From: a virus
Taxonomy: Duplodnaviria; Heunggongvirae; Uroviricota; Caudoviricetes
Reading direction: 5' to 3' (one strand)
IMG/VR virus record: IMGVR_UViG_2778261501_000002
Span: 1 to 22,667 of that record
Length of the DNA stretch: 22,667 nt
Part shown: positions 8,491 through 22,667 of the stretch, piece after piece
Layout of the letters: every line of letters begins with the position of its first letter
Position numbering within the stretch: position 1 is the first letter of the stretch
Translations under genes and position numbers: made by a program
The notes under the pieces: model-generated
Told to the model about the DNA's origin: nothing
Database searches by the model: none
The model's input: only the letters and a program-made list of their open reading frames with translations

Positions 8491-9530
8491 AGGCTGAAGC
8501 ATGGCGGGTCAGCAAACTTGGTGAAATACCTGATATAACGTTCGAGGAAGCGTGTGTCAGGTGGCTTGAAGAGAAAGCACATAAAAAATCGCTGGACGAT
8601 GACAAAAGCCGGATCGGATTCTGGCTTCAACATTTCGCAGGAATGCAACTAAGAGACATTACTGAATCAAAAATTTATTCAGCAATGCAGAAAATGACGA
8701 ACCGGCGTCATGAGGAAAACTGGAAACTCAGGGCAGAAGCATGCAGAAAAAAAGGGAAACCTGTTCCAGAATACACGCCAAAACCAGCGTCCGTTGCAAC
8801 GAAGGCTACGCATCTTTCATTTATAAAGGCCCTACTAAGAGCCGCAGAGCGTGAATGGAAAATGCTGGATAAGGCACCAATTATTAAAGTGCCTCAACCA
8901 AAGAATAAACGGATCCGCTGGCTGGAGCCCCATGAAGCACAAAGGCTGATTGATGAATGTCCGGAGCCATTAAAGTCTGTTGTTGAATTTGCACTGGCAA
9001 CAGGCTTAAGACGCTCGAACATCATCAACCTTGAATGGCAACAAATAGATATGCAGCGCCGGGTGGCATGGATAAACCCGGAAGAGAGTAAATCAAACCG
9101 CGCAATTGGCGTTGCGCTGAATGATACTGCATGTCGCGTATTGAAAAAACAAATCGGGAATCATCACCGTTGGGTATTTGTGTACAAGGAAAGCTGTACC
9201 AAACCAGACGGAACGAAAGCGCCAACAGTAAGGAAGATGCGGTATGACGCAAACACAGCCTGGAAAGCGGCGCTGAGACGGGCTGGTATTGATGATTTCA
9301 GATTTCACGACTTGAGACACACCTGGGCAAGTTGGCTGGTTCAAGCCGGAGTCCCGTTGTCAGTGTTACAGGAAATGGGAGGCTGGGAGTCTATCGAAAT
9401 GGTTCGTCGATATGCTCACCTTGCACCTAATCACCTTACCGAACACGCACGGCAAATAGACTCGATCCTGAACCCATCGGTCCCAAATTTGTCCCAGTCA
9501 AAAAATAAGGAAGGTACTAATGATGTGTAA
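8367..9530 (+). CDS. int: Tyrosine integrase (lambdoid P22/DLP12-type)
   Basis: 387-aa ORF, GAGGA SD 6 nt upstream of ATG 8367; conserved HDLRHTW and RRYAHL catalytic motifs; strong resemblance to enterobacterial prophage integrases as recalled. Confidence 0.92.
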
Positions 9531-9702
9531 CTTATTGATTTTAATGGTGCCGATAATAGGAGTGTAACACGCGATAAATCTTGTGTTCGGGTCTTCTTCT
9601 ACGACCTTCGCAACTACCTGATTTAACGATTTTTACGCACACTGATAATCTGGCATTCATCATGCACATGATAAACGCCCCTAAACTTTAACGGGGTGGA
9701 AA

Positions 9703-11573: not shown

Positions 11574-13424
11574 TCATCCCCCTGTGGATGACTGACCGCT
11601 CAAGGCTGATAGCGTAAGGCTACGAGTGAATGAATCCGCACTCGCTTTTGCAGACCAGTCGATATAGTCAGACAATCGAGAAACATCACTTTGCAGAGTC
11701 AATCCCACTTGTGGATTCACTTGTAGGTTGAATATCGGGTTCAACGTGTACGCTGGCGCGTTGCTGCTGTTGAGCGACATTGCCGAAGCACGGAGATTTT
11801 CCCCTGAAAGGCTGTATTGATTAGTCGCTGTCCCTGCTTGCTGATTACCAACGCCCAACCAATCCATGATAGCCGGAGCCACTGAACGGGTATCAAACCC
11901 CGTTTTATCCTGAATCCAATCGGCCGTAGCATTCGCAGAGCCACCCACAGCACCATCATAAAGATTTTGAACAGCAGGTTTCTTAGTATCGCTAAACCAT
12001 TCAGGGTGTTGTTGGCGGAGAGTACTGTTAAGATCAGACACTACGCTGGAGATTTCTCCAACAAAGCCCGTCACCTGTTTAGCCAGGTCGCCTAATCCCT
12101 CTCCGAGCATACCAGCAGATTCTGTTATCACTTTGGTGTTCTTCACCAGGTCGTCACCACCATCAGCAAAGCCTTTCATAAAGCCTGTAAACATGCTGTT
12201 ATCAACGCCATTCATGAGATTACCCATCGCTACACTCAGATCACCATATGCAAGAGTTTGCTTGATCTGCTCCTCGTTAAGAGTTTGACCACTATCGACA
12301 AGCTGTTTCAGCGTCTTGTTATATTCTGCACCGTTGTTCATGAACATATCGGTGTAGTGCATCAGGTCATCACCTAAACTCTCTATAAGCGTACCAATCT
12401 GAGCCTGTGACATACCACGGCGTTGCCCTTCATTGGTAACTGCTTGAAGTAGATCAGCAGGACGATCCTGGAAGGATTTAATCTGTTCTTTGCCCCATCC
12501 AAACTTATTCATAATAGAAGTGATACCACCATCGCCGCCTTTCCATTCGCCATTTTTAAACTGGCTATCGTTCAGGGTCATAGCGATACGTTCACGTACA
12601 TCTTTGAAATTGTCCGTCACTTTATCGACATTGGCGCTATCAACTCCGTGTTGCTGCCCCCATGCCACCATCGTTTTAACTACGTTAGGATTAGTCTTAA
12701 CAAGTTCCGATTTTCTAACCAAGTCAAGATTTTCATTCCCTTTGTCAACAATTCGCTGCCCCACTCCGAGGGAGCCAGCCGTTAACGCAAGGCTTCCTAA
12801 TACCCCACCACCGACGATAGGAGCATTCCCGCCCTTCTGAGCCTTTAGCTTAGTGGCTGCTGCGGCATACTGGGTACGCTGTGCCTGTGTCACTTTCGCT
12901 TGTTGTGCGGCTTCTCTGCGTAACAGGGTTACACGCTCGCGTATAAGCGCATTCATACGTTGAGAGCTAATATTCCCCTTCGCAAACTCTTCGCTTTGCT
13001 GATGAATATAACGTAACGCTTCATACTGAGATTTAGGATCAAGCCCGTATTTACCTTTAATTCCTGACACTTGTAGCCCTGCATGGCGAAGTTTAAGCTC
13101 GGCTGTCTCTTGGCGCTTCTGTAGCTGCTGCTTCGCTTTCAGATTGGCCTTTTCATCCCTGGCTTTCTGCTTCTCCGCCGCACGTTGGGCTTTCATTTCC
13201 TTCGTATCACGAGGCTTATCATTAAAACGTGCATCATCGGCTTGTTGACGGGCTTTCTGTCTGCGCTGCTTCAGATCCTGGAAGCGAATCTTGGGATCGG
13301 CTATTTTCTGGAAGTGCTTTTGAAGGTTATCCGCTGCGGCCTTAGCCTCTGCAATACTCCCTTTGTCAACGGTGAAAGTTACGGTGTTGACGATCTTACT
13401 TGTATTAATCTCAAGCATCGCCAC
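11574..13424 (-). CDS. Phage tail tape-measure-like protein
   Basis: 616-aa ORF with a long charged coiled-coil N-terminal region and Gly-rich hydrophobic segments (GGGVLGSLALTAGSLGVGQ). Start is ambiguous: GTG 13424 or ATG 13418. Confidence 0.45.
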   Translation of the reverse strand: MAMLEINTSKIVNTVTFTVDKGSIAEAKAAADNLQKHFQKIADPKIRFQDLKQRRQKARQQADDARFNDKPRDTKEMKAQRAAEKQKARDEKANLKAKQQLQKRQETAELKLRHAGLQVSGIKGKYGLDPKSQYEALRYIHQQSEEFAKGNISSQRMNALIRERVTLLRREAAQQAKVTQAQRTQYAAAATKLKAQKGGNAPIVGGGVLGSLALTAGSLGVGQRIVDKGNENLDLVRKSELVKTNPNVVKTMVAWGQQHGVDSANVDKVTDNFKDVRERIAMTLNDSQFKNGEWKGGDGGITSIMNKFGWGKEQIKSFQDRPADLLQAVTNEGQRRGMSQAQIGTLIESLGDDLMHYTDMFMNNGAEYNKTLKQLVDSGQTLNEEQIKQTLAYGDLSVAMGNLMNGVDNSMFTGFMKGFADGGDDLVKNTKVITESAGMLGEGLGDLAKQVTGFVGEISSVVSDLNSTLRQQHPEWFSDTKKPAVQNLYDGAVGGSANATADWIQDKTGFDTRSVAPAIMDWLGVGNQQAGTATNQYSLSGENLRASAMSLNSSNAPAYTLNPIFNLQVNPQVGLTLQSDVSRLSDYIDWSAKASADSFTRSLTLSALSGQSSTGG

Positions 13425-13727: not shown

Positions 13728-14759
13728 TTAAGCAGTGATGGTGATCTTCACCTGCATACCTAACGCATGGTTCACTGGTAATGCGCTGTTTTCGTGCATA
13801 ACGTGGTAAGCATCGCCGCGCTCGCTCAGGTAGCCCCAAGAGTAGTATTCAGCAGGTGCAGCATCGATCAGCGCAAAGTTACCAGAGGCAGCGCCGTAGA
13901 TGTTCTGATAAGCATTTGTGCCTTTACTGAACACCGGAACCGCCACCATGTCAGCATCATCTGGCATCTGTGCAAGGATCAGCGGATCTGTCACTTTAAC
14001 AATGTCGATAGGCGCACCAGGTAGGCTAAACGTACTAACACCAGGGAGAAGCTCGTGACGCTGGTAGAATAGGTTACGGTCGTCATATGGCGCTACATAC
14101 TGGAACGCCTTAGACATACTGTCAGAGAAGCGAATCTGGCTAAATGCAGCAGGTTTAGCGAATACGATCACTCGTTCAATCTGTCCAGCCAATCCACCTG
14201 CGGCAGCCTGAACTTTGTCTAAGATCGCATCAAAATCCTGTGCCGCTGTCGCTGTGCTCACGCTGGCTGTCATTGGCACCACACCGAACAGTTCAGCATA
14301 AGAGATCAGTAGGTCATCAGTTGCAGGCGTATAAACTTCACCTTTGAACAGAGCACGGGCCAGGTAAGACTCACGGGTACGCAGATAAGCAATCTTATGT
14401 TTGCCAGTGTATTCGGTGTACAGGTCGGTAACGGTTTGCTCGTAGTCCGTTCCCTGCACTCTGCGGCCTTGTACGTCTACAGGTTTAAACTCATCTTCCC
14501 TTGCAAACCAAGGAATCTCGATAAGGTATTCTTTGCCATTCTGACGCGCGGTAGTGTCGTGGTTTGATGAATAACGGCTCTGCGGGGTGTTAAACAGGCT
14601 GTAGTTATCATCCAGAAGCTGTGTCACCACCACTTTCGGATTCTGAACACCTACCCCGTCGAATAGGTCGAGGGCATTCATAAGATAGTTACGTTCCGGC
14701 AGAGCCTGGAAGATTGGCGCTAAATCGACCATCTCACGCCCAATTGCGATTTTACTCAT
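13728..14759 (-). CDS. Phage major capsid protein, lambda gpE-like
   Basis: 343-aa ORF, AAGGAAG SD; size and C-terminal pattern (WGYLSERGDAYHVMHENSALP) resemble the lambda gpE family as recalled; preceded by a roughly 110-120-aa gene as in the lambda D-E arrangement. Confidence 0.5.
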   Translation of the reverse strand: MSKIAIGREMVDLAPIFQALPERNYLMNALDLFDGVGVQNPKVVVTQLLDDNYSLFNTPQSRYSSNHDTTARQNGKEYLIEIPWFAREDEFKPVDVQGRRVQGTDYEQTVTDLYTEYTGKHKIAYLRTRESYLARALFKGEVYTPATDDLLISYAELFGVVPMTASVSTATAAQDFDAILDKVQAAAGGLAGQIERVIVFAKPAAFSQIRFSDSMSKAFQYVAPYDDRNLFYQRHELLPGVSTFSLPGAPIDIVKVTDPLILAQMPDDADMVAVPVFSKGTNAYQNIYGAASGNFALIDAAPAEYYSWGYLSERGDAYHVMHENSALPVNHALGMQVKITITA

Positions 14760-18486: not shown

Positions 18487-19164
18487 GTTGCCTGATAGTG
18501 CGGTGTAAGTTGGATTGTTTGCGTTAGGCTGGATGCCTGAGATGAGGACGGGATGAATGCTTTCATTACCCTACATCATTTACTTTAACATGAAATGATT
18601 TAAATGTCAACACTTATTTAAATCCCTTTCAAATTATAGCGCATTTCCACGTTGTGATCAACTCATTCATGTCATCATAAAACGCGGTCTATCGCTTTCT
18701 AACAGGTTTGAAAGCCTGAGAGTTGCAATCCCCTCCCTATCCTCTCAAATTCGCTCTCAGCGCGTCTGGGGCGTTCCGTTTGCGTTACCGCCGCCCTCTG
18801 GCACTTACTCCCGAAACCAATAGCACAACTACTGAGGGATAACGTTAGTTATCAGGATAGTAGGTGATGGTATTGGATTGAGGCTGGATGAACTGGAGCC
18901 ATCAGCGACCAGTGAATCCTTAGCCGTGGGCTAACTTTGCATGGATGAATGCGGAGCATGGAAGACAGGCAGAAGTTATGCTGAAAGACATTGCGCACAC
19001 GGCGCATAGCTTCTGTGCCTCGTTTCACGAGGGCGAAGCCCTGGCACAATCACAGACAGATGCGCTACGCTGCGTCGTGAGCGGCTGACCGAGTAGCCCC
19101 CAAAGGCGAATCAGGTCACTTGCCAGGCGATACGCGCCAGCAAAGCGAATCTTTAACAAGATCT

Positions 19165-19291
19165 TCTAAAAGCTCTCTTTTAGAGATCGCTTTTAGAATC
19201 TCTTTGTATAGAACATCAATTTGATGTGTAGTTTGCCGATCCATACATCAATTTGATGCGTATCCCATGCATCTATACATCATTTTGATGT
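19165..19291. promoter_or_regulatory. Operator/iteron-like repeat cluster
   Basis: Perfect inverted repeat TCTAAAAG-ctct-CTTTTAGA (19165-19184); three 13-bp palindromic repeats CATCA(A/T)-T-TTGATG at 19214-19226, 19246-19258 and 19278-19290 with exact 32-bp phasing. Confidence 0.55.
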
Positions 19292-20050
19292 ATAACGCCC
19301 CCAACTAACTCTGATTCATCCATGCAACAACACTAAGAGTAACGAGAGGTTATTCCTATCAAAACAACACGATAATCATAGCTAAGCCTATCTTAAATGA
19401 CAGGTAAAGATTGCCGTTGTTACATGGGTAAAGTTGCCATAGTCAGCAAGATAGTAACCATCACTCACTTTGCGTAAAGCCTTGCGCCATGCGGCTCACA
19501 GCGATCATTGTCCACAATGAGGAGTTTCATGACAGGTGCAATGTGCTGAACGAGTTTTCTAAAATGAAACGATGTTTCTTTTTCATGCCAAAATCCACCA
19601 ATTGATTAGCATTCTAATCATTTCATTACACACTCAGTTTCAAGTGCATAAACTCCGCATAATTTGTGCATACAGGCAGGTTAGCCCCGCCCTCGCCTAA
19701 CAACCTTACATTTATCAGATTTAAATCAATGAGATAGACAATAACCACACACAAGCATTGGTAGTGTGATGTTCCGCTGTTGCCGCTGTTCTTCGTGCAG
19801 AGTTGAGGATTTGGCAATGTTCAAACACATGTTTATAAATGCCAACATCATGATTTTGTTCAAGATATTTAGAGGAGAAGAAATTTTCGATCTGGAGGCG
19901 GCCCTGGAGGTCGTTAAGCACTGGACGCAATCGCGCCATTTACCACACACAAGACAGTTCGATTTTTGATCATTTATATTGCAACTTACTGAAATTGATC
20001 ATATTGTTTGTTTCGTTGAGTTTAGATGTGTGTCTTTATGGGAGGGTAAA

Positions 20051-20611
20051 TTGAACAGAGCAGTAGTGTTAGACGAACAGCAAGCCAAAGCGATCAGGGA
20101 GTGGCTAAACGCTCATAACAAGAGCCTGATAGCTGACGTTACGTTAATGATGCAAGCCGCTGTACTGCGTGTGGGGGATGCCGTAGCGTTACGCTTCGAC
20201 GAAGTGATCAACGGTGAGATTGACATAGAAGAACAGAAGACAGGGAAGCGTAAAGCCCTCACTCTCCCTGCTCCAGTGGTGCAGATGATTGCTCGTCGCC
20301 GTGCTGAGTATCCGCATGATGTGCATGTGTTCAGAAGCCAGCGTAACCGATCAATGAACAAGCAAGCGCCTGTACGACGCGAAGAAGTGAGCAAGCAGAT
20401 CGCAGAGGCCGCTAAAGCTATCGGTATTCATGGCACTGTATCAGCTCACAGCTTCCGCAAAGCTGGCGGGAATGCCATCTACAAGCGTTCAGCAAACAAC
20501 ATCGCTTTAGCTATGACCGTGCTTAATCACAGCAACATCACTGACACCAGGCGCTATCTGGATTTAGACAAGCAAGCCGTTAGCCGTGTGATCAATGAGA
20601 TGGACTTATAA
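20051..20611 (+). CDS. Small tyrosine recombinase, catalytic domain only (~186 aa)
   Basis: GGAGGG SD 4 nt upstream of in-frame TTG 20051 (the track start at 19979 is also TTG); motifs LRVGDAVALRF (box I Arg), HSFRKAGG and TRRY (catalytic Tyr); no N-terminal arm/core-binding domain. Confidence 0.65.
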   Translation: MNRAVVLDEQQAKAIREWLNAHNKSLIADVTLMMQAAVLRVGDAVALRFDEVINGEIDIEEQKTGKRKALTLPAPVVQMIARRRAEYPHDVHVFRSQRNRSMNKQAPVRREEVSKQIAEAAKAIGIHGTVSAHSFRKAGGNAIYKRSANNIALAMTVLNHSNITDTRRYLDLDKQAVSRVINEMDL

Positions 20612-20621
20612 GGAGATACGC

Positions 20622-20819
20622 ATGAAACGCTTGCTTGTGCTGACGCTGACAGTAATGCCAGTCCTGGCGAATGCCGGACAGATAACCCTGATTCTCAGTG
20701 ACGAACAGGAGACAGACAACGCGAAGATTTGCGTTTATTCCAACGCCAACTTTACGGAGACAGTGACGCTCAGGCCGTCGCAGCAATGCCGCTACACAAT
20801 GACCTTTGAAGAGGAGTAA
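20622..20819 (+). CDS. Small secreted/periplasmic protein (65 aa) with signal peptide
   Basis: AGGAG SD 6 nt upstream of ATG 20622; N-terminal signal-like MKRLLVLTLTVMPVLANA; two Cys in the mature part. Confidence 0.5.
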   Translation: MKRLLVLTLTVMPVLANAGQITLILSDEQETDNAKICVYSNANFTETVTLRPSQQCRYTMTFEEE

Positions 20820-20877: not shown

Positions 20878-21357
20878 TCACTGCTTGGAATCACGTAGGA
20901 TCAGAGACAATATCCACCACCAGCGACGACGCAGCCAACTAACATCACTGAACAGCTTCCCATCAGATGTAGTAACATACACCCCTCCGCGATGATGCAC
21001 CTTATTATGGTGAGCCTTATTGATGAATGGTACTTCTAAGATCATTTCATCACGGGCTTTTAATCGGCGTGGCAACATGGGGCTGATCATGTATTCATCA
21101 CAATGTTCGTTAGAACAATCGCTAAGGCGTCCGCTGGCGGTTACTATGCCCGCCGAACTTATCGTCACATCATGGGCGCTTTTGTTGGAAACATAAATTC
21201 TGTCTTCATACTGATCGCAACCTAAGAAAAGGCGTAGATCTGTTCTGGATTTTAATAGCTGGAAAATGGATAGTGCAAACCCAGCCCATGCGGCAAGCAT
21301 GGTCAGATTATCAACATTAAGCAACCAATCTATCAAAGTTCCATCCCTTGAGAGCAA
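20878..21357 (-). CDS. Hypothetical membrane protein, start uncertain
   Basis: One predicted TM helix (LTMLAAWAGFALSIFQLL); Trp/Arg-rich C-terminus; candidate starts are TTG 21357 or ATG 21300. Confidence 0.35.
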   Translation of the reverse strand: MLSRDGTLIDWLLNVDNLTMLAAWAGFALSIFQLLKSRTDLRLFLGCDQYEDRIYVSNKSAHDVTISSAGIVTASGRLSDCSNEHCDEYMISPMLPRRLKARDEMILEVPFINKAHHNKVHHRGGVYVTTSDGKLFSDVSWLRRRWWWILSLILRDSKQ

Positions 21358-21560
21358 AGATAATTAGCAATTCCTTGATGCTGTAAGTCAGTCAATTGGA
21401 AGTAGGAATCGAGTACGATTATGACTTGCGTGGCATTATCAGCATGAACAGAACCAGGGGTATCAGGAGGAAGCGAACCATCAAGGATGGCAGTAAAGTA
21501 ACCCGATGAGATAGAGACTTTCAGGAAGCAATTGGGTAAAAATTCGTAACGTTCACTCAT
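21333..21560 (-). CDS. Hypothetical protein (75 aa)
   Basis: GAGGTGG SD upstream of ATG 21558-21560 (MSERYEF...); the track's longer 104-aa start at 21647 is less likely. Confidence 0.4.
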   Translation of the reverse strand: MSERYEFLPNCFLKVSISSGYFTAILDGSLPPDTPGSVHADNATQVIIVLDSYFQLTDLQHQGIANYLCSQGMEL

Positions 21561-21723
21561 AACCACCTCATTTTCAGATTGTTTCTGCAAAGCGTACATT
21601 ACGAATTTTATTCTTTTACCGCATTTCAAACCAAATGACAATTCCATTGAATCAGTTGAGGATTTTAACCCTCACCGAAGATAACATAACCTCAAAATGT
21701 CTATCGCTTCATTGAGGAAATGT

Positions 21724-22497
21724 ATGTCTACTGAAAATTTTGTCACCTTCTGGTTAGCCAGAGCCGATCTTCCATACTTTCTTGAACCCCATGAATTTTA
21801 CGTTTCTGAGGCAAGGCGGCGGCTTCTCTCTCAGTTTGGTGATTTAGAACAAGAAGCAGAGAAGAGAGAACAACAGTTTTTGGAGACTACTGCTGAGTAT
21901 TTTGATCAAGATAACGATGACCCAATGGCGGCCTACGAGCAAGCCTATCATGAGGGAATTTATTATGTACGGTCGCTTCTGGAGATGCAAAATACCGTAT
22001 TGTTGGCGTTGACAGCAGGTATGTATCATCAGTTTGATAAAAAACTAAGAGAACATACTATCAAAGAGCTAAGTAATTGGTGTGAAAGAGAATTGATTAC
22101 CCCCATGATCTGGAATTTAACTTTCCATCAGCTAATTGATTTGCTCGAATGGATTGGCCTCACAATCAATGGAACCGAATACGGAGAAAGGATAAAAGCC
22201 TGTAACTTGGTGGTAAACGTATACAAGCATGGAGACGGCCCTGCACATCAAACACTATCAGTTGATCATCCTGAGTATTACCCAAACCCCACCGATGTTA
22301 GAGGCACGCAGATTGTCCCTAACCATGACGATTTACATGTCTCAGAAGATCAATTTGTAGATTTTGCTAACGCAATAACTGCTTTCTGGAACGCGGTTCC
22401 AGAAAATTGTTACTACTCAGATCTTAGAGAAGAACCCAAATGGTTGGATAGAGTTGTGACAAGATTCGAAAAAAAGCATAGGGGCAATAGGGGCTGA
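21724..22497 (+). CDS. Hypothetical protein (257 aa), AT-rich cargo gene
   Basis: GAGGAAA SD 4 nt upstream of ATG 21724 (ATG 21697 is an alternative); no family recognised. Confidence 0.5.
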   Translation: MSTENFVTFWLARADLPYFLEPHEFYVSEARRRLLSQFGDLEQEAEKREQQFLETTAEYFDQDNDDPMAAYEQAYHEGIYYVRSLLEMQNTVLLALTAGMYHQFDKKLREHTIKELSNWCERELITPMIWNLTFHQLIDLLEWIGLTINGTEYGERIKACNLVVNVYKHGDGPAHQTLSVDHPEYYPNPTDVRGTQIVPNHDDLHVSEDQFVDFANAITAFWNAVPENCYYSDLREEPKWLDRVVTRFEKKHRGNRG

Positions 22498-22505
22498 TTA
22501 GCCCC
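22490..22505. terminator. GC-rich hairpin between convergent genes
   Basis: GGGGCT-gatt-AGCCCC overlapping the stop of the 257-aa gene; no clear T-run on either strand. Confidence 0.3.
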
Positions 22506-22508
22506 ATC

Positions 22509-22667
22509 TCAAAACATCAAGTTTGCAGCTCGCGCCAACTTGATTTCCTCTCGCTCTTCCTGCTTCTTAGCAAGCCAGGCTTTCCCCTCTGGTGTTGCCA
22601 GGAATTTACGGGCGTGAATCTTACGGTTGTTGCGCTTCGTGGCTGCTTTTTGGTTAGCTTTTGACAT
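22509..22667 (-). CDS. Small basic protein ORF reaching the window edge (52 aa if the ATG at 22665-22667 is the true start)
   Basis: Open frame from the window edge to TGA at 22509-22511; lysine/arginine-rich; possibly 5'-truncated by the window. Confidence 0.3.
   Translation of the reverse strand: MSKANQKAATKRNNRKIHARKFLATPEGKAWLAKKQEEREEIKLARAANLMF

Follow-up and report, generated by a model that had tools for sequence, protein, structure and literature searches.

The 22,667 bp stretch analysed here (IMG/VR virus record IMGVR_UViG_2778261501_000002, positions 1 to 22,667; referred to as the window) carries a gene for a tyrosine recombinase of 186 amino acids (aa), which is a complete catalytic domain with no other domain. 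The gene is intact and under purifying selection. With about 600 bp of non-coding upstream DNA it forms one module (19456-20611), which contains a 27-bp imperfect palindrome as candidate recombination site. We tentatively favor the reading that site and enzyme form a self-contained system which would resolve or circularize copies of the mobile element in which they reside, with a nearby half-site (copy 2 of a direct repeat) as feedback site.

An intact recombinase gene encoding only a catalytic domain

Residues 6-175 of the recombinase correspond to positions 2-171 of the 172 positions of Pfam profile PF00589 (59.7 bits, cut-off 27.1). Only about five residues precede the catalytic domain, and there is no Phage_int_SAM match that would indicate an N-terminal core-binding domain, unlike in the 407-aa integrase of the island which hosts the gene. 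The motifs H133-x-x-R136 and R167-R168-Y169 are present and invariant in the family, and R40, K63/K66, H133, R136, H160, and Y169 do not vary among 15 sequences, the most distant of which is 26% identical. The initial annotation, which had described a catalytic-domain-only enzyme of about 186 aa with R, H-x-x-R, and RRY motifs, is thus confirmed by profile coverage and invariant residues. AlphaFold2 predicted a single compact catalytic-domain fold (predicted local distance difference test, pLDDT, 92.7). Using this model as query, Foldseek returned XerH, XerA, IntI, and lambda Int with probability 1.0 and a query TM-score of 0.66-0.76; the best matches among solved structures are the catalytic domains of XerH, XerA, the integron integrase, and lambda Int, all of which are larger proteins.

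The program-derived open reading frame (ORF) extends over 19979-20611 (210 aa from an upstream TTG). We reassigned the start to the TTG at 20051, because GGGAGGG is found 4 nt upstream and because relatives have an ATG at exactly that codon (loci L004, L007, and L014-L020 among those aligned).

The ratio of nonsynonymous to synonymous substitution rates (dN/dS) of the gene is 0.02-0.06 when compared to five relatives with 14-21% divergence of the upstream DNA. Homologues at 26-97% identity are nearly all 185-199 aa long. An exhaustive profile search resulted in 446 clusters (50% identity) at E<1e-30, mostly of 180-200 aa, which come from phages, phage-plasmids, and plasmids. The initial annotation had named a disrupted full-length integrase, of which the ORF would be the 3' remnant, as the finding that would overturn its assignment. 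The short length by itself would be compatible with such a pseudogene, but dN/dS, the invariant active site, and the length conserved across hundreds of independent clusters rule it out. Also, start codon, ribosome-binding site, and promoter are conserved, while the upstream DNA is conserved as blocks of non-coding sequence in which indels disrupt every frame. We thus regard a remnant as next to impossible.

With tblastn (E<=1e-3), relatives at 25-32% identity were found in 186 phage records (mainly Streptococcus, C. difficile, and Bacillus) and 827 plasmid records (mainly Enterococcus, Bacillus, Clostridium, Listeria, and lactic acid bacteria). The recombinase matches PHROG 216 (E=5e-27). PADLOC reported no defense system for the recombinase or the neighboring ORFs.

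A portable module with a conserved upstream region

Between islands which differ in their replication module, with a DEAD-helicase module in place of DUF6945 in the loci compared, homology begins at 19456-19461 and continues through the recombinase gene. The non-coding DNA and the gene thus behave as one module, and all full-length relatives align to it as a single collinear piece.

Within this region, the 12-mer ACCACACACAAG occurs at 19744-19755 (copy 1) and 19942-19953 (copy 2) in direct orientation, with a start-to-start distance of 198 bp. This repeat, already listed in the initial annotation, is read directly from the sequence and is conserved in relatives. It can be extended to 17 nt at 88%, and neither strand of the window contains its 11-mer ACCACACACAA anywhere else. 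By chance, about 1% of 400-bp stretches of the same composition would contain an exact 12-mer direct repeat within 300 bp, and for random sequences as long as the window the proportion with at least one such repeat is about 27%. The repeat alone is therefore weak evidence; it is the conservation across relatives which makes it real. At the family level the conserved repeat comprises 11 bp, the 12th base being G, C, or T and varying independently in each copy.

We compared 28 loci: 19 metagenome contigs, found with a search pattern comprising copy 2 and the promoter, plus loci from genomes and from IMG/VR. Copy 1 lies outside the search pattern; copy 2 lies inside it, so that its conservation in these loci reflects ascertainment. 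Copy 2 is also conserved in independently fetched genome loci. Both copies are kept in all 28 loci, 27 of which have a spacing of 197-198 bp and one of 243 bp.

The candidate site

Copy 1 is the left arm of the imperfect palindrome (10-7-10). In 22 unique sequences, 18 of the 20 arm positions but only two of the seven central positions are invariant, compared to a background of 46% invariant columns across 19630-19941 (312 bp). The two longest invariant runs in these 312 bp are the two arms (19746-19754 and 19765-19774), and the eight variants of the 27-bp site differ almost exclusively in the center. Conserved arms around a drifting center are the pattern expected of a tyrosine recombinase core, which makes the palindrome a candidate for such a site.

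A 57-bp segment around the palindrome was found in only 18 of 5,426 complete E. coli genomes, exactly once in each. All 18 also carry the recombinase gene, which results in a strict 1:1 linkage, and no second target copy is present in their chromosomes, plasmids, or prophages. One site per genome, and only alongside the gene, fits a site which recombines with copies of itself. It makes a pseudo-att, an option raised in the initial annotation, unlikely; the attachment (att) site proper of the island is at 9544-9563. Only copy 1 has an inverted partner and the two copies are thus not equivalent crossover sites. The repeats are probably protein-binding sites.

Two direct repeats beside an enzyme with the minimal architecture of FimB had prompted the suggestion of a FimB/FimE-type switch, in which the repeats would be equivalent crossover sites and the enzyme would delete or invert the 198-bp segment between them. 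The segment indeed lies between the distal site and the promoter of the gene. However, direct repeats would lead to an irreversible deletion, and yet both copies persist throughout. The product of such a deletion should be common if the two copies recombined, but it was not encountered: a pattern for the deletion junction had no match in IMG/VR, copy 1 is not lost in any of the 19 metagenome contigs found through copy 2, and these contigs as well as the 18 E. coli genomes are all collinear. Inversion of the segment is absent from all loci compared, which are assemblies, and rare subpopulations can escape assemblies. As the inverted partner exists at copy 1 only and as the FimB/FimE models do not match, the switch is unsupported and we consider it very improbable.

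The supposed Cys-rich small ORF between the repeats is not a gene. A frameshift or truncation interrupts it in L002, L010, and L003, its cysteines are not conserved, its substitutions lack a synonymous bias, and RefSeq does not annotate it; the start assigned initially (19770) was off by one. Minus-strand ORFs in the same interval were rejected because their frames are not conserved. DnaA boxes were considered as an identity of the repeats and rejected: the CCACA core is similar, but the TTAT part is not conserved while the 3' CACAA is. Arm-type sites of the main integrase of the island were also rejected, the att repeats being more than 3 kb away (one at 9544-9563, the other beyond the window end).

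The predicted promoter and the concerted change of the repeat motif

Copy 2 lies directly upstream of a predicted promoter for the recombinase gene. The sequences TTGCAA/TTGTAA and (T)GATCATAAT are conserved in the aligned subfamilies, with L020 lacking GATC. A consensus promoter scan placed a weaker promoter at 19951-19980. Two TGATCA sequences (Dam GATC sites), 29 bp apart, flank the -35 element. The conserved GATC over the -10 element hints at expression being coupled to replication or to the methylation state.

The repeat motif changes in concert across subfamilies, as far as the aligned sequences indicate. Loci of the L007 type have ACATCACA at both repeat positions. Loci of the L015/16/17/20 type, with a recombinase that is only 43% identical, have AATGTGAGAT twice upstream of the gene (264-267 bp apart; one mismatch in the second copy of L020), and the proximal copy is again located directly upstream of the -35 element. 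When up to one mismatch is allowed, there are no further plus-strand matches to AATGTGAGAT in L015, L016, and L020, and one extra 1-mismatch occurrence in L017. The upstream region of L014 (Citrobacter sp. NCU1 contig_23, about 1150-1570) is chimeric and combines both motif types, each in a single copy. The 200 bp nearest the promoter match the window type and include a degenerate ACCACACATAG; the distal part belongs to the divergent type, as does the recombinase, and contains one AATGTGAGAT. The genome of L014 also holds a window-type island (L012), which suggests recombination between co-resident islands.

The repeats could instead be operators for another regulator, encoded by the island or the host, that controls the recombinase promoter. 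The enzyme would then act elsewhere, e.g. as an accessory to the island integrase or on helper-phage DNA. Copy 2 is positioned where activators and repressors bind. In addition, the whole island diverges together, so that co-variation of motif and recombinase does not single out the recombinase, and the motif types are mixed in L014. On the other hand, the motif is unchanged when the replication/helix-turn-helix (HTH) module is swapped, the 1:1 linkage of gene and site comes without a second site copy in the 18 genomes, and the palindrome is conserved like a recombination core and not like a simple operator. We consider independent operators plausible but unlikely.

Distant relatives adjoin packaging genes

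In four inspected records, packaging genes adjoin distant homologues of the short recombinase. The homologue directly precedes HNH and terminase genes in a pneumococcal prophage and precedes the terminase large subunit and portal genes in Streptococcus phage Javan371. A Vibrio plasmid has it directly after PacB, and an E. coli plasmid has it directly 5' of an HNH gene and 3' of a 1.6-kb non-coding stretch which bears iterons. The short recombinase is usually found at the boundary with packaging genes in the records inspected. In the C. difficile phage phiCD38-2, which is presumably maintained as a plasmid, the homologue is near the right end. For the homologues of phiCD38-2 and of lactococcal plasmids, no functional study was found in the literature searched. 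A plasmid-encoded example of 195 aa (pRC12/pRC18) has been classed only as an INT_C_like_3 integrase (PMC7117683).

Proposed resolution or cyclization of the element, and nicking as the main rival

According to the reading which we tentatively favor, the island would excise and replicate from its iteron origin, or would arrive as concatemeric or terminally redundant DNA. The recombinase would pair the core sites (copy 1 palindromes) of tandem island copies, and recombination of the paired cores would yield monomer circles, as in resolution or cyclization of the Cre/lox or Xer/cer type. Occupancy of copy 2 would feed back on the recombinase's own promoter. FimB illustrates that an enzyme of such minimal architecture can carry out full recombination, and in phage P1 cre/loxP is located near pacAB and serves both cyclization and dimer resolution. 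The reading is supported by the intact active site, the purifying selection, the conserved length, the behavior as a module, and the anatomy of the site, and furthermore by the concerted motif change, the single site per gene-carrying genome, and the position of relatives near packaging genes. From these data we tentatively infer that the recombinase binds the motifs, that it recombines and does not just nick, and what its biological role may be.

Several observations speak against this reading. Six of the outer seven base pairs of the arms are symmetric, and the symmetry is limited to those 7 bp. The divergent L015-type loci have no obvious equivalent of the inverted arm at the distal copy, and the mixed motifs of L014 suggest that the two copies may not need to match. 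Invariant arms and a variable center would be equally well accounted for by a nick-site hairpin. The enzyme has no core-binding domain which would clamp the site, and a Pfam scan detected no separate core-binding-like protein among three small ORFs of the island. An integrated island would need resolution only after induction. Finally, the literature searched contains no functional study of the short-recombinase family.

We rank as main rival a relaxase or nickase of the MOB_M kind (MobK, TcpM, MpsA), for which the upstream DNA would be an origin of transfer (oriT) or a rolling-circle origin. One strand would be nicked at or near the palindrome, after which a co-resident conjugative element could mobilize the island, or rolling-circle replication could start before packaging. 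MobK, TcpM, and MpsA have been described as lacking arm- and core-binding domains, and their oriT, with inverted repeats and two direct repeats, lies directly upstream of gene and promoter (PMC8152469, PMC6414798). MobK may also be autoregulatory (PMC8152469). According to a 2026 preprint, MOB_M are the commonest chromosomal relaxases and are common in islands; 96% are near an integrase and they are often annotated as integrases (10.64898/2026.01.13.699239). The overall layout is the same here, an island with an integrase and with a GC-rich element and inverted repeats upstream of the gene, and the orphan catalytic domain with a repeat-rich region directly upstream parallels oriT1 of pIGRK.

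The relaxase comparisons covered MobK, with the sequence from pIGRK recovered via its published oriT sequence, and TcpM. The results do not favor the nickase: MobK gave no BLASTP match and 5% probability over 44 columns with hhalign, and TcpM reached 76%, which is a generic catalytic-domain match and weaker than the 95.8% obtained with FimB. The island has no MpsB-like partner, coupling protein, or transfer gene, and many family members reside in ordinary temperate phages, in which one would not expect a conjugative relaxase. Overall, we judge nicking unlikely. The 11-mer CCGCCCTCGCC is common to the region and to pIGRK oriT1; we judge this to be chance, and it falls within a part of oriT1 which the authors found to be dispensable.

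In a wider sense, the recombinase and its upstream region might provide a phage-satellite-like island with a further module for mobility or processing which is independent of the first, either as a relaxase/oriT pair or as a nickase or recombinase which converts replicated island DNA to the packaged form. We regard this as doubtful. If true, a relaxase/oriT pair would add conjugation as a route of transfer for a satellite that encodes a capsid, and either alternative would be the first assigned function for a large family of recombinases which lack the core-binding domain and are encoded beside packaging genes in temperate phages and phage-plasmids.

The host island and its surroundings

The features of the window are compiled in Table 1. 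The chromosomes of nine E. coli strains, e.g. AR_0128, match the 1.6 kb around the gene at 100% identity; carrier strains include AR_0128 and MS6192. The gene is a core gene of a 13.7-kb integrative island at tRNA-Thr, which encodes a full-length integrase (DUF6538, SAM-like, and catalytic domains), the capsid and tape-measure-like proteins, small conserved ORFs, an HTH protein, and a DUF6945/O-like replication initiator. The initiator region is followed by a 1.5-kb non-coding stretch, the short recombinase, and variable cargo. Portal and terminase genes are absent from the island. Among 50,697 phage records, only one weak match to a Curvibacter phage was obtained for the capsid protein, and the literature searched makes no mention of DUF6538 or DUF6945. 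The same architecture is found in Enterobacter, Leclercia, Citrobacter, Kluyvera, Buttiauxella, and other genera, with recombinases that are 43-98% identical. This island family looks like an undescribed satellite-like element.

Table 1. Features of the window and of loci compared with it (window positions unless another locus is named)
Feature	Position	Strand	Remarks
Island att direct repeat, 20 bp	9544-9563; partner at about 23247, beyond the window end (L001 23848-23867)		ATGGTGCCGATAATAGGAGT; identical to the tRNA-Thr 3' end
615-aa protein	11574-13424	-	Tape-measure PHROG match (2.5e-98); adjoins the capsid gene
Major capsid protein, lambda-E type	13728-14759	-	Pfam Phage_cap_E
Three 18-bp palindromic iterons	19213-19294 (region 19150-19294)		ACATCAATTTGATGTGTA; exactly 32 bp apart
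Left end of the module	19456-19602		80-84% identical (blastn) where the recombinase is only 43% identical
Palindrome	19507-19518		ATTGTCCACAAT; within the left-end block
Palindrome	19603-19620		TGATTAGcattCTAATCA; conservation at least 90% in 23 unique sequences
Three GCATA repeats	19644-19670		About 11 bp apart; conservation at least 90% in 23 unique sequences
GC-rich element	19678-19701		AGGTTAGCCCCGCCCTCGCCTAAC; conservation at least 90% in 23 unique sequences
Invariant block	19725-19739	+	ATCAATGAGATAGAC; directly upstream of the 27-bp palindrome
Candidate crossover/nick site, 27-bp imperfect palindrome	19744-19770	+	ACCACACACA (copy 1) - AGCATTG - GTAGTGTGAT
"Cys-rich small ORF" (not a gene)	GTG 19766 or ATG 19769 to 19969	+	Broken in relatives
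Repeat copy 2	19942-19953	+	Lone half-site without inverted partner; ends 25 bp upstream of the -35 element
Promoter-like block (predicted)	19967-20005	+	TGATCA 19967-19972; -35 TTGCAA 19979-19984; TGATCA overlapping -10 CATATT 19996-20005 (TGATCA 19996-20001)
Ribosome-binding site	20040-20046	+	GGGAGGG, 4 nt 5' of TTG; GGAGG or GGAGA kept in relatives
Catalytic-domain-only tyrosine recombinase gene, 186 aa	20051-20611	+	TTG start, TAA stop
65-aa ORF	20622-20819	+	Directly 3' of the recombinase gene; signal-peptide-like N-terminus MKRLLVLTLTVMPVLANAG
Homologue plus packaging gene in other records	L068 (Vibrio campbellii plasmid) 4014-7573; L067; L043 3836-4988; L035 9977-13431		

The vegetative origin is most likely the iteron-bearing left part of the non-coding stretch, and an AT-rich 29-nt inverted repeat adjoins the iterons. 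In the divergent island of L015 the iterons are unrelated to these and number five units of 17 bp, again spaced at 32 bp (9023-9179), and the E. coli plasmid L043 has four iterons with a spacing of 22-55 bp (2257-2390). Iterons differ with the Rep type between islands; each set is probably a replication origin matched to its initiator.

For the left-end block of the module, a role as operator, packaging signal, or RNA is conceivable; short minus-strand ORFs at 19456-19600 were rejected as genes because their frames are not conserved. L003 and L007 have GG in place of the central CC of its palindrome and thus keep the arms. The elements within 19603-19701 are partly retained in divergent subfamilies. 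A search for RNA families in the non-coding region gave none at gathering thresholds, the only match being a meaningless miRNA on the AT-rich palindrome. The invariant block upstream of the candidate site may partly resemble an integration host factor (IHF) site. It recurs with 14 of 15 bases at 20591-20605, in the last codons of the recombinase gene, so that the two copies bracket candidate site, promoter, and gene, which may be a coincidence or mark the boundary of a cassette.

To the left of the att repeat, the window (1-9530) contains a degraded prophage. As this prophage has an integrase of its own (8367-9530), two elements are stacked in tandem at tRNA-Thr. About 2 kb of this remnant (approximately 5450-7834) are absent from AR_0128, based on the comparison with L001. 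The window thus originates from a strain other than AR_0128, although the recombinase region is 100% identical. The 65-aa ORF is hypothetical in RefSeq and not conserved in related islands. The cargo further downstream (20878-22667) varies among islands and has no defense-system matches.

Comparison with known systems

Short recombinases which consist of the catalytic domain only are abundant and are routinely labeled "integrase". In the literature searched, no function has been assigned to them beyond FimB/FimE and three atypical relaxases, and neither group is specifically related to the recombinase described here. The locus offers a clean handle on such enzymes: a single gene under very strong constraint, a candidate site of 27 bp linked strictly 1:1 to it, a second site near its own promoter, and natural motif variants. 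Its value is a defined substrate on which recombinase and nickase can be directly distinguished. The host island also looks undescribed (13.7 kb, tRNA-Thr, and a capsid gene almost without relatives in sequenced phages).

Like the recombinase, FimB and FimE have about 200 aa, are essentially a catalytic domain with a short N-terminal extension, and have the full active site. FimB gave the best profile match (hhalign, residues 25-170 vs. 32-177 of FimB, 95.8% probability, 23% identity over 139 columns). The likeness to FimB/FimE proposed initially thus holds for the architecture but does not extend to the curated models, as NCBIfam tyrosine-type DNA invertases do not match at E<=0.01, where only weak Xer and integron models match, far below their cut-offs. 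Furthermore, there is a single gene and not a pair, the repeats are direct with no inverted forms in any locus, and the gene is found on a mobile island beside a replication origin and not in a fimbrial operon. The recombinase is not a FimB/FimE member.

The MOB_M proteins MobK of pIGRK, TcpM of pCW3, and MpsA of SGI1 (PMC8152469, PMC6414798) share the orphan catalytic domain, the upstream cis site, and the residence on small mobile elements or islands. They differ in size (186 aa here vs. 242 and 266), and the recombinase lacks the extra C-terminal helices of MobK as well as an MpsB-like partner. Its relatives occur in true phages, and there is no specific homology to MobK or TcpM. Membership in either FimB/FimE or MOB_M is not supported, although the recombinase may work like one of them.

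The module resembles Cre/loxP and Xer/cer in that one enzyme would be paired with one short candidate palindromic core that has a variable center, beside replication functions, and as with Cre/loxP the relatives adjoin packaging functions of a circular replicon (pacB or terminase genes). However, Cre and Xer clamp the DNA with a core-binding domain which the recombinase does not have, and its palindrome is only weakly symmetric. The short integrases of the INT_C_like/PHROG 216 kind from Gram-positive plasmids and temperate phages have the same length and the same single domain. From these, the recombinase differs as an enterobacterial branch (27-32% identical) which is encoded on a chromosomal, capsid-encoding island and has a definable candidate site. 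It is a new enterobacterial, island-borne member of this catalogued, functionally unassigned kind.

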